In this document: piece by piece, positions 14,847 to 22,125 of the stretch
Position numbering within the stretch: position 1 is the first letter of the stretch
How the letters are laid out: each line of letters opens with the position of its first letter
DNA from: Escherichia coli
GTDB taxonomy: Bacteria > Pseudomonadota > Gammaproteobacteria > Enterobacterales > Enterobacteriaceae
Reading direction: 5' to 3' (one strand)
Assembly: GCF_003018115.1 (NCBI RefSeq)
Contig: NZ_CP027457.1
Length of the DNA: 64,000 nucleotides
The notes under the pieces: generated by a model
What the model saw: the letters and a program-made list of their open reading frames with translations, nothing else
Databases searched by the model: none
Told to the model about the DNA's origin: nothing
Made by a program: the position numbers and the translations under genes

Positions 14847-15545
14847 GTGATTTTTCAAAAGATTGCCCGCTTACTTAAATCCGAGATCAATGGCTATTCA
14901 TGGCATGTTGGTGATTTGTTGCCATCAGAAGCTGAACTCGCAGTTCGTTATAATGTTTCGCGTAATACCCTGCGTAAGGCATTATCCTTGCTGGAAGGCG
15001 AAGGAATTATTCACAGAAAGCATGGTTCAGGAACATACATTCAAAAAAAGAATTTTGTTGCACACATTGATCACATGAACAGTTTCAGTGAAATTGCGCA
15101 TAAAAGCGGCAAAGAGGCAGGGAGTCAGATTATGAAATTTGAAGTGCAGGATGCTTCACCTACTATTGCGACTGAGCTGAATTTAGTAACTGGTGAGCAG
15201 GTTTATTACATAAAGAGACTGCGATTCATTGAGGATAATGCAGCACAATTAGAAGAAACGTGGATGTCAGTGGCACGTTTTCCTGATTTAACCGTAGCAC
15301 ATATGCAAAAATCCAAATTTTCGTATATTGAGAACGAATGCGGGATCAAAATCATTGGCACCTTTGAAACTTTCTCCCCTACTTTTCCTACCCCAGAAAT
15401 CGCCAGTATTTTACGGATCAGCCCACGGGATCCCATACTTAAAATTCAGACCCAGGCTGTGGACAGTAACTCTGTTCCGCTGGATTATTCGTTACTTTAC
15501 AGCAATATTTTCGAGTTCCAGGTAAAGTACTTTTTCCCGCGATAA
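14847..15545 (+). CDS. GntR/HutC-family transcriptional regulator, divergent from the PTS operon (GTG start in track)
   Basis: N-terminal GntR winged HTH (SEAELAVRYNVSRNTLRKALSLLEGEGII) plus UTRA-like C-terminal domain. Confidence 0.8.
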   Translation: MIFQKIARLLKSEINGYSWHVGDLLPSEAELAVRYNVSRNTLRKALSLLEGEGIIHRKHGSGTYIQKKNFVAHIDHMNSFSEIAHKSGKEAGSQIMKFEVQDASPTIATELNLVTGEQVYYIKRLRFIEDNAAQLEETWMSVARFPDLTVAHMQKSKFSYIENECGIKIIGTFETFSPTFPTPEIASILRISPRDPILKIQTQAVDSNSVPLDYSLLYSNIFEFQVKYFFPR

Positions 15546-15588: not shown

Positions 15589-16488
15589 TTAGCCTCTAAC
15601 CTTTACCGCTTTACGCCACCGCAAGCCAAATACATTGATATACAGCCCGGTCATAATGAGCACCGCACCGAAAAATTGCAGACCCGTTAAGCGTTCATCC
15701 AACAATAGTGCCGCACTTGCCAGTCCGACTACAGGCACCAGTAACGATAACGGTGCAACCCGCCAGGTTTCATAGCGTCCAAGTAGTGTTCCCCAGATCC
15801 CATAACCAACAATTGTCGCCACAAAAGCCAGATACATCAGAGACAAGATAGTGGTCATATCGATAGTGACCAGACTGTGAATCATGGTTGCGGAACCATC
15901 GAGAATCAGCGAGGCAACAAAGAAGGGAATGATTGGGATTAATGCGCTCCAGATTACCAGCGACATCACCGCCGGACGCGTTGCGTGCGACATGATCTTT
16001 TTATTGAAGATGTTGCCACACGCCCAACTAAATGCTGCCGCCAGGGTCAACATAAAGCCGAGCATCGCCACATGCTGACCGTTCAGACTATCTTCGATTA
16101 ACACCAGTACGCCAAAAATCGCTAAGGCGATCCCCGCCAATTGTTTGCCATGCAGTCGCTCCCCGAAAGTAAACGCGCCAAGCACGATAGTAAAAAACGC
16201 CTGTGCCTGTAACACCAGCGAAGCCAGTCCAGCAGGCATACCAAAATTAATGGCGCAGAACAGAAAGGCAAACTGCGCAAAACTGATGGTTAATCCATAC
16301 CCCAGCAGCAAATTCAGTGGTACTTTCGGTCGTGCGACAAAAAAGATGGCCGGAAAAGCGACCAGCATAAAGCGCAAACCGGCCAGCATCAGCGGTGGCA
16401 TGTTATGAAGCCCCACTTTGATGACCACAAAATTTAGCCCCCATACGACCACTACCAGTATCGCCAACACCCCATCTTTTCGCGACAT
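15589..16488 (-). CDS. eamA: Cysteine/O-acetylserine exporter (DMT family)
   Basis: MSRKDGVLAILVVVVWGLNFVVIKVGL... 299 aa from internal ATG of the 306-aa ORF; two EamA repeats. Confidence 0.9.
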   Translation of the reverse strand: MSRKDGVLAILVVVVWGLNFVVIKVGLHNMPPLMLAGLRFMLVAFPAIFFVARPKVPLNLLLGYGLTISFAQFAFLFCAINFGMPAGLASLVLQAQAFFTIVLGAFTFGERLHGKQLAGIALAIFGVLVLIEDSLNGQHVAMLGFMLTLAAAFSWACGNIFNKKIMSHATRPAVMSLVIWSALIPIIPFFVASLILDGSATMIHSLVTIDMTTILSLMYLAFVATIVGYGIWGTLLGRYETWRVAPLSLLVPVVGLASAALLLDERLTGLQFFGAVLIMTGLYINVFGLRWRKAVKVRG

Positions 16489-16682: not shown

Positions 16683-17870
16683 ATGAACTTATCCCTACGA
16701 CGCTCTACCAGCGCCCTTCTTGCCTCGTCGTTGTTATTAACCATCGGACGCGGCGCTACGCTGCCATTTATGACCATTTACTTGAGTCGCCAGTACAGCC
16801 TGAGTGTCGATCTAATCGGTTATGCGATGACAATTGCGCTCACTATTGGCGTCGTTTTTAGCCTCGGTTTTGGTATCCTGGCGGATAAGTTCGACAAGAA
16901 ACGCTATATGTTACTGGCAATTACCGCCTTCGCCAGCGGTTTTATTGCCATTCCTTTAGTGAATAACGTGACGCTGGTGGTGCTCTTTTTTGCCCTCATT
17001 AACTGCGCCTATTCCGTTTTTGCTACCGTGTTGAAAGCCTGGTTTGCCGACAATCTTTCGTCCACCAGCAAAACGAAAATCTTCTCAATCAACTACACCA
17101 TGCTCAACATTGGCTGGACCATCGGTCCGCCGCTCGGCACGCTGTTGGTGATGCAGAGCATCAATCTGCCCTTTTGGCTGGCAGCTATCTGTTCCGCGTT
17201 TCCCATGCTTTTCATTCAAATTTGGGTAAAGCGCAGCGAGAAAATCATCGCCACGGAAACAGGCAGTGTCTGGTCGCCGAAAGTTTTATTACAAGATAAA
17301 GCACTGTTGTGGTTTACCTGCTCTGGCTTTCTGGCTTCTTTTGTTAGTGGCGCATTTGCTTCATGCATCTCACAATATGTGATGGTGATTGCTGATGGGG
17401 ATTTTGCCGAAAAGGTGGTCGCGGTTGTTCTTCCGGTGAATGCTGCCATGGTGGTTACGTTGCAATATTCCGTGGGCCGCCGACTTAACCCGGCTAACAT
17501 CCGCGCGCTGATGACAGCAGGCACCCTCTGTTTCGTCATCGGTCTGGTCGGTTTTATTTTTTCCGGCAACAGCCTGCTATTGTGGGGTATGTCAGCTGCG
17601 GTATTTACTGTCGGTGAAATCATTTATGCGCCGGGCGAGTATATGTTGATTGACCATATTGCGCCGCCAGGAATGAAAGCCAGCTATTTTTCCGCCCAGT
17701 CATTAGGCTGGTTGGGCGCAGCGGTAAATCCATTAGTGAGTGGTGTTGTACTTACCACTCTCCCGTCGTCTTCGCTGTTTATCATTCTGGCGTTAGTCAT
17801 CATTGCCGCGTGGGCGCTGATGTTAAAAGGTATTAACGCCAGACCCCAGAGGCAACCAGCACTCTGTTGA
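16683..17870 (+). CDS. ydeE: MFS transporter YdeE
   Basis: 395-aa 12-TM MFS protein at the expected position after eamA. Confidence 0.9.
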   Translation: MNLSLRRSTSALLASSLLLTIGRGATLPFMTIYLSRQYSLSVDLIGYAMTIALTIGVVFSLGFGILADKFDKKRYMLLAITAFASGFIAIPLVNNVTLVVLFFALINCAYSVFATVLKAWFADNLSSTSKTKIFSINYTMLNIGWTIGPPLGTLLVMQSINLPFWLAAICSAFPMLFIQIWVKRSEKIIATETGSVWSPKVLLQDKALLWFTCSGFLASFVSGAFASCISQYVMVIADGDFAEKVVAVVLPVNAAMVVTLQYSVGRRLNPANIRALMTAGTLCFVIGLVGFIFSGNSLLLWGMSAAVFTVGEIIYAPGEYMLIDHIAPPGMKASYFSAQSLGWLGAAVNPLVSGVVLTTLPSSSLFIILALVIIAAWALMLKGINARPQRQPALC

Positions 17871-17910
17871 CGTTCGTGCCGTTCCACTACTGGCACGGCT
17901 TCGCTAATCA

Positions 17911-18306
17911 TTATTCTGAGGCAAAGGCATAGCCTTCATCTTCCCAGCCGGTTATCCCGCCGAGCATGATTTTAACCGGCTTTCCGAGTCGAGCCAGTTT
18001 GAGTGCCGCACGGTCTGCACCGTTACAATGTGGCCCCGCGCAATACACCACAAATAGCGTATCGTCGGGCCATTCGGCCATTCTTTCTGCGGTCATTTGC
18101 TTATGGGGTAAATGGAGAGCGCCTGGGATATGCCGACGCGCGAAGTCCTCTTCACGTCCAACCACATGAAGTAAAACGAAATCATCGCCAATATAAGCCA
18201 GAGAGTCATGAACATCGGCGCAATCTGTTTCGACACTCAAGCGCGCGAGAAAATGCGCCTCAGCAACTTCTGGCTTCGCTGTGGTAAATTCAGTGACATA
18301 ACGCAT
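17911..18306 (-). CDS. Single-domain rhodanese-like sulfurtransferase
   Basis: 131-aa ORF with rhodanese active-site loop context (VVYCAGPHCNGADRAA). Confidence 0.75.
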   Translation of the reverse strand: MRYVTEFTTAKPEVAEAHFLARLSVETDCADVHDSLAYIGDDFVLLHVVGREEDFARRHIPGALHLPHKQMTAERMAEWPDDTLFVVYCAGPHCNGADRAALKLARLGKPVKIMLGGITGWEDEGYAFASE

Positions 18307-18379
18307 ATTGCTTTGTCCTTTTGGTTTGTTGTGTTAACAATAATGTAACTAATCTACCTTTCACTGACCGCCTCTCGAT

Positions 18380-19372
18380 ATGCCAGAAATGAGCAAAATG
18401 ATGACAACGTTACAACGTCCGCTGGTCATTGCACTGGCATATGACGGGCTATGTACTTTTGAATTTGGCGTTGCCGTTGAAATATTCGGCCTGCCACGAC
18501 CGGAACTGGGCGATAACTGGTATCGTTTTGCTGTTGCTGCGGTAGAACCTGGTGCGCTACAAGCCACCGGGGGGATCCACGTGGTTGCAGATGGTGGACT
18601 GGAGTTATTGCCCAACGCCGATATGATTATTATTCCTGGCTGGCGCGGAATAGATGCCAAAGTGCCGGAGATGCTATGCCAGTCATTGCGCGAGGCACAC
18701 CAGCGCGGTACTCGCCTGGTATCAATATGCTCTGGCGTGTTTGTCCTTGCTGCTGCGGGCCTTCTTCATCAGCGAAAAGCAACCACCCACTGGCGCTACA
18801 CTGAACAACTCCAGCACCGTTACCCTTCAATCAGCGTAAGTGATAATGTGTTATATCAGGATGAAGGACAAGTGATGACCTCCGCCGGAAGCGCCGCGGG
18901 GATCGATCTGTGTTTACATATCGTGCGCAAAGATTTTGGTCATGAGATTGCTAATAATGTCGCCCGGCGACTGGTCATTCAGCCACATCGCCAGGGGGAT
19001 CAACCACAAAATCTGACGCGCCCAATGGCCTCACCGCGTGAAAGCCAGACGTTAGGTGCCTTATTCGACTTTTTGCAGCAGAATCTGGCACAAACACATA
19101 CTGTGTCTTCCCTCGCCGAACGGGTAAATATGAGTCCGCGCACTTTTTTAAGACGTTTTGAGGCGTTAACTGGCATGACGCCCGCCCGCTGGCTGCTCAA
19201 TGAGCGCTTAATACGAGTACAGGATTATCTGCAAAATTCGGTTTTTAACATCGAGAAAATTGCCGAGCTGACGGGTTTTGGCAATTCAGCGTTATTGCGT
19301 CATCACTTTCACCAACGTTTTTTATTATCTCCTTCGCAATATCGCAAAAACAGCCGTTCCCCATCACAATAA
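18380..19372 (+). CDS. AraC-family regulator with N-terminal DJ-1/PfpI (class I glutamine amidotransferase-like) domain
   Basis: N-terminal DJ-1/PfpI fold with nucleophile-elbow Cys (RLVSICSGVFVLAAAGLL); C-terminal AraC HTH (SLAERVNMSPRTFLRRFEALTGMTPARWL...). Exact start among several N-terminal Met uncertain. Confidence 0.75.
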   Translation: MPEMSKMMTTLQRPLVIALAYDGLCTFEFGVAVEIFGLPRPELGDNWYRFAVAAVEPGALQATGGIHVVADGGLELLPNADMIIIPGWRGIDAKVPEMLCQSLREAHQRGTRLVSICSGVFVLAAAGLLHQRKATTHWRYTEQLQHRYPSISVSDNVLYQDEGQVMTSAGSAAGIDLCLHIVRKDFGHEIANNVARRLVIQPHRQGDQPQNLTRPMASPRESQTLGALFDFLQQNLAQTHTVSSLAERVNMSPRTFLRRFEALTGMTPARWLLNERLIRVQDYLQNSVFNIEKIAELTGFGNSALLRHHFHQRFLLSPSQYRKNSRSPSQ

Positions 19373-19479
19373 TCGCCTGATTCAGCCTTTGTTTAGATAA
19401 CCTCTGCTAATATCTTTCTCATTGAGATAAAAATTAAGGTAAGCGAGGAAACACACCACACCATAAACGGAGGCAAATA

Positions 19480-19575
19480 ATGCTGGGTAATATGAATGTT
19501 TTTATGGCCATACTGGGAATAATTTTATTTTCTGGTTTTCTGGCCGCGTATTTCAGCCACAAATGGGATGACTAA
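19480..19575 (+). CDS. mgtS: Small membrane protein MgtS (YneM), 31 aa
   Basis: Translation MLGNMNVFMAILGIILFSGFLAAYFSHKWDD; below the ORF-track size cutoff; GGAGG RBS upstream. Confidence 0.85.
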   Translation: MLGNMNVFMAILGIILFSGFLAAYFSHKWDD

Positions 19576-19602
19576 TGAACGGAGATAATCCCTCACCTAA
19601 CC

Positions 19603-19642
19603 GGCCCCTTGTTACAGTTGTGTACAAGGGGCCTGATTTTTA
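19603..19642 (+). terminator. Rho-independent terminator downstream of mgtS
   Basis: GC-rich hairpin GGCCCCTTGT...ACAAGGGGCC followed by TGATTTTTA. Confidence 0.6.
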
Positions 19643-19650
19643 TGACGGCG

Positions 19651-19755
19651 AAAAAAAACCGCCAGTAAACCGGCGGTGAATGCTTGCATGGATAGATTTG
19701 TGTTTTGCTTTTACGCTAACAGGCATTTTCCTGCACTGATAACGGATCGTTGACA
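19651..19755 (-). ncRNA. mgrR: Candidate PhoP-dependent sRNA MgrR; boundaries approximate
   Basis: Minus-strand PhoP-box-like direct repeat aGTTTAagctccGTTTAa at plus 19781-19800, then about 100 nt to a minus-strand terminator (CCGCC...GGCGG plus T8, plus 19651-19676). Sequence identity not verified from memory. Confidence 0.45.
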
Positions 19756-19793
19756 CAGTAGCATCAGTTTTCTCAATGAATGTTAAACGGAGC

Positions 19794-20684
19794 TTAAACT
19801 CGGTTAATCACATTTTGTTCGTCAATAAACATGCAGCGATTTCTTCCGGTTTGCTTACCCTCATACATTGCCCGGTCCGCTCTTCCAATGACCACATCCA
19901 GAGGCTCTTCAGGAAATGCGCGACTCACACCTGCTGTCACGGTAATGTTGATATGCCCTTCAGAATGTGAGATGGCATGGTTATCGACTAACTGGCAAAT
20001 TCTGACACCTGCACGACATGCTTCTTCATCATTAGCCGCTTTGACAATAATGATAAATTCTTCGCCCCCGTAGCGATAAACCGTTTCGTAATCACGCGTC
20101 CAACTGGCTAAGTAAGTTGCCAGGGTGCGTAATACTACATCGCCGATTAAATGCCCGTAGGTATCATTAACCAATTTAAATCGGTCAATATCCAACAACA
20201 TTAAATAAAGATTCAGAGGCTCAGTGTTGCGTAACTGATGATCAAAGGATTCATCAAGAACCCGACGCCCCGGCAATCCCGTCAAAACATCCATATTGCT
20301 ACGGATCGTCAGCAAATAAATTTTGTAATCGGTTAATGCCGCAGTAAAAGAAAGTAACCCTTCCTGAAAAGCGGCGAAATGCGCGTCCTGCCAGTGATTT
20401 TCAACAATAGCCAGCATTAATTCCCGACCACAGTTATGCATATGTTGATGGGCAGAATCCATTAGCCGAACGTAAGGTAATTCATCGTTATCGAGTGGCC
20501 CCAGATGATCAATCCACCGACCAAACTGGCACAGTCCATAAGAATGGTTATCCGTTATTTCTGGCTTACTGGCATCTCTCGCGACCACGCTGTGAAACAT
20601 ACTCACCAGCCACTGGTAGTGGGCATCGATAGCCTTATTGAGATTTAACAAGATGGCATCAATTTCCGTTGTCTTCTTGATCAT
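19794..20684 (-). CDS. dgcZ: Zinc-regulated diguanylate cyclase (CZB + GGDEF)
   Basis: MIKKTTEIDAILLNLNKAIDAHYQWL... with GGEEF motif (RYGGEEFIIIV); 296 aa from internal ATG. Confidence 0.9.
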   Translation of the reverse strand: MIKKTTEIDAILLNLNKAIDAHYQWLVSMFHSVVARDASKPEITDNHSYGLCQFGRWIDHLGPLDNDELPYVRLMDSAHQHMHNCGRELMLAIVENHWQDAHFAAFQEGLLSFTAALTDYKIYLLTIRSNMDVLTGLPGRRVLDESFDHQLRNTEPLNLYLMLLDIDRFKLVNDTYGHLIGDVVLRTLATYLASWTRDYETVYRYGGEEFIIIVKAANDEEACRAGVRICQLVDNHAISHSEGHINITVTAGVSRAFPEEPLDVVIGRADRAMYEGKQTGRNRCMFIDEQNVINRV

Positions 20685-21331: not shown

Positions 21332-21606
21332 ACTAACTCCTTAATTGCGTTTGGTTTGACTTATTAAGTCTGGTTGCTATTTTTATAATTGCCAAATAAG
21401 AATACTGCCAATTGTTATAAGGCATTTAAAATCAGCCAACTAGCTGTCAAATATTCAGAGAATTTAACTCACTAAAGTTAAGAAGATTGAAGAGTCTTAA
21501 ACATATTTTCAGCATAATCGGATTTATATGTTTGAAAATTATTATATTGGACGAGCATACAGAAAAAGCAAATCACCTTTACATATAATAGCGTGGACAA
21601 AAAACA

Positions 21607-22125
21607 GTGAACATTAATAAAGATAAAATTGTACAACTTGCAGATACCGACACTATTGAAAACCTGACATCCGCGTTGAGTCAAAGACTTATCGCGGATC
21701 AATTACGCTTAACTACCGCCGAATCATGCACCGGCGGTAAGTTGGCTAGCGCCCTGTGTGCAGCTGAAGATACACCCAAATTTTACGGTGCAGGCTTTGT
21801 TACTTTCACCGATCAGGCAAAGATGAAAATCCTCAGCGTAAGCCAGCAATCTCTTGAACGATATTCTGCGGTGAGTGAGAAAGTGGCAGCAGAAATGGCA
21901 ACCGGTGCCATAGAGCGTGCGGATGCTGATGTCAGTATTGCCATTACCGGCTACGGCGGACCGGAGGGCGGTGAAGATGGTACGCCAGCGGGTACCGTCT
22001 GGTTCGCGTGGCATATTAAAGGCCAGAACTACACTGCGGTTATGCATTTTGCTGGCGACTGCGAAACGGTATTAGCTATAGCGGTGAGGTTTGCCCTCGC
22101 CCAGCTGCTGCAATTACTACTATAA
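21607..22125 (+). CDS. ydeJ: CinA-C-terminal-domain (PncC-like) protein YdeJ
   Basis: 172-aa ORF with CinA C-terminal motifs (TAESCTGGKLA). Confidence 0.85.
   Translation: MNINKDKIVQLADTDTIENLTSALSQRLIADQLRLTTAESCTGGKLASALCAAEDTPKFYGAGFVTFTDQAKMKILSVSQQSLERYSAVSEKVAAEMATGAIERADADVSIAITGYGGPEGGEDGTPAGTVWFAWHIKGQNYTAVMHFAGDCETVLAIAVRFALAQLLQLLL

Follow-up and report, generated by a model that had tools for sequence, protein, structure and literature searches.

The locus and its two products

The 64,000-nucleotide stretch of Escherichia coli DNA analysed here (the window; RefSeq assembly GCF_003018115.1, contig NZ_CP027457.1) carries, between ydeE and mgtS, a gene for a small rhodanese and, as its divergently transcribed neighbor, ftrA, which encodes an AraC-type regulator with an N-terminal DJ-1/PfpI domain. 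The two genes probably constitute a self-contained, ligand-controlled module of the type known from GATR regulators, at an ancestral enterobacterial position beside ydeE. The pair has already been annotated and is a known difference between O157 and K-12; what is new is the case for an ancestral module that would have been lost from most E. coli, the recognition of a likely regulator and target with a predicted operator of GATR geometry, and the finding of three divergent haplotypes.

From 17500 to 19800 the window has 100% identity with strain F9792 and 99.8% with O157:H7 strains, and the RefSeq annotation of the pair is alike in F9792, CE10 and O157:H7 Sakai. In Sakai the rhodanese has the locus tag ECs_5444 and ftrA has ECs_2143; the pair is also found there under the old tags ECs2142 and ECs2143, with ECs2142 taken from the numbering to be the rhodanese. 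An earlier note on this DNA, made from the letters alone, had stated that K-12 has no protein genes between ydeE and mgtS. The annotation of K-12 BW25113 agrees, with zero genes there and with ~25 nt between the ydeE stop codon and the conserved region upstream of mgtS, as against ~1.5 kb in the window.

The open reading frames (ORFs) of the pair are indeed divergent, as that note had described, and their features are collected in Table 1. The 73 bp it had placed between them holds in part: there is a divergent spacer, but with the PGAP start of ftrA it is 94 bp, and it is 73 bp only if the ATG at 18380 is used. Because the conserved operator considered below overlaps 18381-18407, a start at 18398 or 18401 seems preferable to one at 18380. 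A Shine-Dalgarno-like AAGGA is 9 nt ahead of the rhodanese ATG.

Table 1. Features of the rhodanese-ftrA locus, in positions of the window
Feature	Position	Strand	Remarks
Rhodanese gene, 131 aa	17911-18306	minus	ORF listing
ftrA, AraC regulator with DJ-1/PfpI domain	18401-19372	plus	PGAP start
ftrA, longest ORF, 330 aa	18380-19372	plus	ORF listing
Alternative ftrA starts, in frame	18380, 18398	plus	
Predicted FtrA operator, two direct half-sites 15 nt apart	18381-18407	minus	overlaps ftrA start codons
Half-site 1, TTGTCA	18407-18402	minus	
Half-site 2, CTGGCA	18386-18381	minus	
Third, partly inverted box region	18358-18380	minus	GCCA..CTGCCAG in Alphaproteobacteria; degenerate GAGGCGGTCAG in the window
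Candidate -10 of the rhodanese promoter, TAGATT	18351-18356	minus	read from sequence
Palindrome TTGTGTTAACAATAA (GTGTTAACAC in Enterobacter)	18328-18342		between candidate -10 and rhodanese ribosome-binding site
Rhodanese active-site loop, C89-A-G-P-H-C94			six residues; sulfurtransferase type, not the seven-residue Cdc25/Acr2 type
Sharply bounded haplotype block	~17700-19385		last ~170 bp of ydeE plus the pair; from sliding identity and junction alignment

Domain searches with hidden Markov models bore out the rhodanese and DJ-1/PfpI-AraC folds that had been proposed. The product of 18380-19372 matches DJ-1_PfpI (PF01965) with 66.5 bits (cutoff 26.6) and has a C-terminal double helix-turn-helix that scores 69.9 bits with HTH_18 and 47.4 bits with HTH_AraC and matches the DNA-binding domain of AdpA (3W6V) with E 1e-16. 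NCBIfam NF006902 (PRK09393, ‘transcriptional regulator FtrA’) is matched over residues 6-327 with 557.3 bits (cutoff 425). With the GbdR equivalog model NF052371 the alignment is full-length (E 1e-37) but the score is 129.9 bits against a cutoff of 480; FtrA is thus related to GbdR but belongs to a separate orthologous group. Its DJ-1/GATase1-like N-terminus and AraC double helix-turn-helix are shared with the GATR subfamily, which includes CdhR, GbdR, SouR and ArgR of Pseudomonas aeruginosa and CahR of P. putida. FtrA orthologues are 51-67% identical overall.

The closest solved relative of the FtrA sensor domain is isocyanide hydratase (ICH, or InhA) of Pseudomonas fluorescens (PDB 3NON, 6NI5), with E 1e-17 and 35% identity over 149 aa. 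ICH is a free-standing enzyme, while FtrA has the domain fused to a DNA-binding domain and has no known catalysis. The nucleophile-elbow cysteine pointed out in the earlier note is there: ‘SICSG’ of FtrA, with C110, aligns to ‘SVCTG’ of ICH, with its nucleophile, Cys101, and the cysteine is invariant in 73 of 73 orthologues. So are E21 and T129-H130-W131 (323-aa numbering) in the same 73 sequences, and a motif ATTHW is common to FtrA and ICH. The residue after the nucleophile is Ser in FtrA where ICH has Thr102. Glu21 stands opposite ICH Asp17 in a manual positional alignment only; HMMER comparison of the FtrA N-terminus with solved structures gave no alignment, and BLASTP of FtrA against an ICH sequence recovered just the previously aligned region, not the N-terminus.

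The rhodanese matches Pfam PF00581 over residues 52-123 with 44.2 bits (cutoff 22.2; E 2.8e-11). Its best solved relative, with E 1e-17, is the structural-genomics protein BH2092 of Bacillus halodurans (3o3w/3nhv), for which the searchable literature yielded no function. BH2092 aligns over residues 10-124, including an N-terminal ‘ETD’ extension and the shared YCxGPxCNGA loop, with its loop cysteine opposite C89, but it has no equivalents of C29 and H93 (ETDI, GPAC). The subfamily is tight, with 58-78% identity across two classes, and C29, C89, C94 and the stretch YCAGPHCNG are invariant in 81 of 81 orthologues; C29 is in a family-specific N-terminal extension, ‘AHFxxRLxxETDCxDV’. Loop length was read off the sequence, as CAGPHC before the helix NGADRAAL, by analogy with GlpE. 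GlpE and PspE of E. coli likewise have a single rhodanese domain and a six-residue loop starting with the catalytic cysteine; the window protein differs from them in its additional invariant Cys29 and in having Cys94 at the last loop position, which is Ser or Thr in classical enzymes. Because of this replacement, a persulfide on the enzyme could perhaps be resolved internally by the second loop cysteine. The role of the protein is most likely transfer or reductive release of sulfane sulfur. Among the sampled rhodanese relatives that have ~45% identity and a CWGPxCN loop, pairing with FtrA was not seen.

Pairing and the predicted operator

One representative genome per species was scanned with a 10-sequence rhodanese alignment; more than 594 matches resulted, and the best 80 of them, from Enterobacterales and many Alphaproteobacteria, were taken as the loci for analysis. 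In 74 of the 80 an ftrA homologue is present upstream on the opposite strand, and the gap between the two is 81-170 bp in 72 of the 74; a nucleosidase-like gene sits between them in two paired loci. The genes that flank the pair are wholly different in Ensifer, Lelliottia and E. coli. The pair is also found in the Betaproteobacteria Comamonas and Burkholderia and on pMRAD04, a mobilizable 37.7 kb plasmid of Methylobacterium radiotolerans that also has an EamA-family transporter gene, and a metagenomic relative of 52% identity is likewise paired. This recurrence of divergent adjacency in varied contexts, in Betaproteobacteria and on a plasmid, along with conservation of the operator, points to rhodanese and ftrA being a functional module, old and widespread in Proteobacteria.

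A MetE-family methyltransferase gene follows that for the rhodanese in 22 of the 80 loci and a GNAT acetyltransferase gene does so in six; both were rejected as members of the module, being absent in E. coli and not universal. The homologous GNAT gene, apparently in one operon with the rhodanese, is seen in those six loci, in Ensifer, on three metagenomic contigs and on pMRAD04 (L097, with L004 for Ensifer, and L018, L019, L023, L025, L039, L075 and L091-L093). On a plasmid of Agrobacterium vitis (L095, 2486-3993) an FtrA paralogue of 52% identity faces a gene of the NTF2 family (SnoaL-like), with no rhodanese. In a plasmid collection, 127 Escherichia records encode a match to FtrA with E <1e-40 and <60% identity; these proteins are presumably another GATR-type regulator.

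An operator consensus was derived from 73 spacers anchored on their common motif, and reads tTTG.CATgaT.tt.acg.Tat.TGgCA.....Gcca.c.g.ca. The predicted operator is thus TTGkCA-15 nt-TGGCA, followed by a partly inverted third box. Its cores, TTG-CA and TG-CA, are near 2 bits and almost invariant, and the remaining spacer is unconserved; 72 of the 73 sequences match at least 10 of the 12 fixed positions, and the motif is found once in the 64-kb window. The A. vitis paralogue keeps the operator as TTTGGCAT-N13-TCTGGCAA-N4-TGCCA, and Burkholderia has the same boxes. The third box is between half-site 2 and the presumed rhodanese promoter, and in the anchored alignment its conservation is weaker in Gammaproteobacteria. 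A reading of TGGCA-N4-TGCCA as a sigma-54 promoter was rejected since its GG-to-GC spacing misfits the consensus.

The geometry is that of known GATR sites. CdhR is divergent from its target operon and acts at direct GGTCGC half-sites with a 15-bp spacer, both of which are required for ligand-dependent activation, it represses itself without ligand, and the 6+15 half-site geometry is shared by the sites of GbdR, SouR and ArgR (PMC5806209). FtrA has in common with these regulators the divergent target, the 6-bp direct half-sites with a 15-bp spacer, in its case predicted, and the sensor cysteine. It differs in its half-site, TTGkCA versus GGTCGC for CdhR, and in its predicted target, a single rhodanese gene where the GATR targets are amine-catabolic operons. 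That the regulator would control the rhodanese, as the earlier note had supposed, is strongly supported by adjacency in the 74 loci and by the conserved operator.

The candidate -10 of the rhodanese promoter is kept as TAGAGT or TAGATT in Enterobacteriaceae and would place the half-sites near -40 and -61. No good -35 was seen beside it, and a consensus scan of the spacer gave no sigma-70 promoter, which fits an activator-dependent rhodanese promoter. The palindrome downstream of the candidate -10 is seen in enterobacterial loci only and is absent from alphaproteobacterial loci; Escherichia sp. ESNIH1 (L017) has it in duplicate, and a second regulator may bind to it. A riboswitch or small RNA (sRNA) inside the pair was rejected, as the sole Rfam hit in a scan of 17500-20000, STnc560/MgrR, is outside it.

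Haplotypes and ancestry of the site

The pair is present in 381 of 5426 complete E. coli genomes, always chromosomal and single-copy, so that the accessory status suspected in the earlier note is sound. Copies at least 99% identical to the window number 320 and represent the O157:H7/O55:H7 lineage, and another 58, ~84% identical to it, are from CE10-like strains. Of the block, O157:H7 ATCC 43889 (H70) retains just the final 467 bp (query 1030-1496), which bear the annotation of a helix-turn-helix fragment; in this strain the pair has been partially deleted in an independent event.

The edges of the block to which the pair belongs are sharp. Its flanks are 98-100% identical among the window, CE10 and K-12; inside it the window and CE10 are 67-85% identical, and K-12 is without the pair. 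In the ydeE tail (17700-17872, ~170 bp) the window, CE10 and K-12 have three haplotypes that are pairwise 22-33% different, a divergence far above what is usual within E. coli, and outside this tail their ydeE sequences are 98-100% identical. The E. coli alleles of the pair are ~16% apart in nucleotide sequence, far beyond the flanks. At the protein level the rhodaneses of the window and CE10 are 89% identical, with no more than 81% identity to any other rhodanese found and no more than 78% to that of any named genus, and their FtrA proteins are 89-92% identical, with no more than 81% to other proteins found. That the two E. coli alleles are mutual nearest relatives suggests an origin in the Escherichia lineage. 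With three divergent, sharp-edged haplotypes the ydeE-mgtS junction is a compact case for the study of allelic replacement in E. coli.

Recombination has made a mosaic of the region. Across the pair Sakai and the window are 100% identical, but across eamA (15600-16400) their identity is 84-92%; for K-12 and CE10 it is 96-100% there. Positions 19385-19480 are ~4% different between the present haplotype and K-12 or CE10, the block edge at ~19385 being ~95 nt upstream of mgtS.

Homologues of the window genes were mapped in the scanned loci for synteny. The order eamA-ydeE-(0-1 gene)-rhodanese-ftrA, in the same orientations, is shared by a Kosakonia-like metagenome-assembled genome, Phytobacter, Enterobacter, Pseudescherichia, Kluyvera and Pseudocitrobacter; in the last of these the rhodanese gene directly abuts ydeE, as it does in E. 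coli, and in Cedecea ftrA adjoins mgtS. The G+C content of the pair is 50.1%, compared with 49.6% for the window. No flanking repeats were found at the block boundaries, the annotation has no mobility gene or integrase near the pair, the Rfam scan of 17500-20000 placed neither a tRNA nor any other RNA family at these boundaries, and the pair does not qualify as a mobile element or genomic island. K-12 keeps CACAATAA, a match to the final 8 nt of ftrA that is in register (7 nt) with respect to the shared ATTCAGCC after it, and this may be a remnant of the 3′ end of ftrA. Because of the shared synteny, the normal G+C content, the lack of repeats and mobility genes and the match to the ftrA end in K-12, the site appears to be ancestral in enterobacteria and the K-12 state to be a loss or a replaced haplotype. 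The description of the pair in the earlier note as inserted is not borne out, given the same order in other genera, the window-like composition and the absence of repeats, tRNA and integrase. The difference between O157:H7 and K-12 at this site would then be an old enterobacterial module lost by most E. coli and not acquired pathogen DNA.

A different and less probable history has the module disappear from the Escherichia ancestor and return by at least two imports from different related enterobacteria, by homologous recombination via the conserved ydeE and mgtS flanks. It would account for the sharp edges at ~17700 and ~19385 between flanks of 98-100% identity and for ydeE tails that are as far apart as those of different genera, and no other species of Escherichia or Salmonella is among the best 80 of more than 594 rhodanese matches, of which the top one is from Kosakonia at 78%. 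Against this, the two E. coli alleles are closest to each other, which suggests an Escherichia-lineage origin, the donor is unsampled, and the ydeE tail of the K-12 haplotype is diverged as well, so that each of the three haplotypes may be old.

The proposed module, its ligand and the alternatives

The favored reading, a ligand-controlled module of GATR type beside ydeE, draws on the conserved adjacency and on an operator with the geometry of those of CdhR and GbdR, which make activation of the rhodanese promoter and autoregulation by FtrA most likely. FtrA would bind both direct half-sites (TTGkCA-15 nt-TGGCA) of the short spacer, which would be near -61 and -40 of the rhodanese promoter and which also overlap the ftrA start. 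With a small molecule bound by its N-terminal domain it would activate transcription of the rhodanese gene, and without the ligand it would damp its own expression, as CdhR does. The O157:H7/O55:H7 lineage and the CE10-like group would have kept the module, which most other strains do not have.

Several points weigh against this reading. Six of the 80 rhodanese loci are without ftrA, one of them being at a contig end, and more distant rhodanese relatives are paired with a LysR regulator or with none. The placement of the half-sites at -40 and -61 and the class of activation are guesses. Conservation of the operator could partly reflect translation signals, because half-site 1 and the ftrA start codon share bases and alternative ATGs are in frame with both boxes. 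The 22-33% differences in the ydeE tail are hard to explain by vertical descent and one deletion. The searchable literature yielded no experiment with this regulator or with this rhodanese.

An unlikely alternative, which follows the earlier note, combines a foreign insertion in this lineage with a thiol-based regulon for sulfur or electrophile stress. The sensor would be the DJ-1 cysteine, with an oxidant, electrophile, persulfide, cyanide or isonitrile as its covalent modifier. K-12 and 93% of complete E. coli genomes are without the pair, its presence on a mobilizable plasmid means that it is able to move, and the ~16% divergence of its alleles, so much greater than that of the flanks, fits import by recombination; but there is synteny in six or more other enterobacterial genera, mobility signatures are lacking and K-12 has the possible ftrA remnant. 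As to the thiol, C110, E21 and H130 are invariant, the predicted target is a rhodanese, the classical enzyme of cyanide and sulfane sulfur, and ICH, the best solved relative of the sensor domain, forms a covalent thioimidate at the equivalent cysteine. However, GATRs often keep this sensor-domain cysteine although the four ligands known for them are amine metabolites (bioRxiv 10.1101/2021.11.02.466972), bound non-covalently, and the A. vitis FtrA paralogue would control an NTF2-like gene and no sulfur enzyme. Because the cysteine is common in GATRs with amine ligands, C110 alone does not indicate thiol sensing, and thiol-based sensing by FtrA is a minority hypothesis.

Modules in which a sulfane-sulfur regulator is combined with a rhodanese include those of YgaV-YgaP, CstR and BigR, and in addition the ArsR-type sulfane-sulfur sensors sHdrR/SoxR have been reported to control rhd genes (PMC12423496). 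The FtrA pair resembles these modules in that a dedicated transcription factor adjoins a gene of rhodanese type. All of these regulators are repressors of ArsR or CsoR type that sense via paired cysteines, in contrast to FtrA, which is of AraC type with a DJ-1 domain.

More speculative, and improbable as a whole, is that FtrA is a covalent sensor derived from an enzyme. ICH hydrates isonitriles by way of a thioimidate on its cysteine, with Asp17 donating a proton (PMC12570138). In FtrA a pocket with Cys110 and Glu21 would by analogy trap a C1-nitrogen or sulfur electrophile, such as an isonitrile, a cyanide- or thiocyanate-like compound or sulfane sulfur, and so induce a detoxifying rhodanese with three cysteines; the pair would be a small detoxification regulon spread horizontally among plant- and gut-associated Alpha-, Beta- and Gammaproteobacteria, with an old presence/absence polymorphism in E. 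coli. If true, this would define a previously unrecognized small detoxification regulon.

That the genes are unrelated neighbors, with FtrA regulating elsewhere and the rhodanese constitutive or otherwise controlled, is very improbable, for although some rhodanese loci are without ftrA, two have the nucleosidase-like gene in between and the enterobacterial palindrome near the rhodanese 5′ end could serve another regulator, the divergent adjacency is seen in 74 of 80 loci from two classes, in Betaproteobacteria and on a plasmid, and the conserved predicted operator is exactly between the genes.

On the module reading FtrA, for whose name the searchable literature offers no tested function, gains a testable model with a likely target, predicted operator coordinates and residues, and GATR regulators, so far tied to amine catabolism, would be extended to an enzyme of sulfur type. 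The ligand of FtrA, once found, would widen the known detection range of the GATR sensor domain. Little of this will surprise the specialist, and no long-standing question hangs on it.

Most literature matches for ‘FtrA’ concern a different protein, the periplasmic FtrA of iron transport. As for the regulator, a Rhizobium tropici Tn5 mutant in it is mildly acid-sensitive, in Pseudomonas syringae its gene has been used as a stable reference gene, and ECs2142 and ECs2143 served as non-K-12 control spots on a microarray. Identity of ftrA with Z2164, a putative regulator of O-island 59 that is 6-fold RpoS-dependent in EDL933, depends on a guessed, unconfirmed tag and was not used as evidence.

The neighborhood has further differences between strains. 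Just outside eamA (15589-16488) there is a gene for a GntR-family regulator at 14847-15545, with genes for IIA, IIB and IIC components of a phosphotransferase system (PTS) of lactose/cellobiose type and a carbohydrate porin upstream of it; this block is present in F9792 and CE10 and absent from K-12 and Sakai, where marB abuts eamA. In CE10 (L003) the part corresponding to ~21400-22000 of the window is missing from the alignment and ydeJ is reduced to an 81-bp pseudogene fragment. On the other side of the pair, the sRNA STnc560 (MgrR; Rfam 282 bits) adjoins mgtS and mgtT, in a stretch with a minus-strand feature at 19569-19782 and a plus-strand one at 19481-19576.

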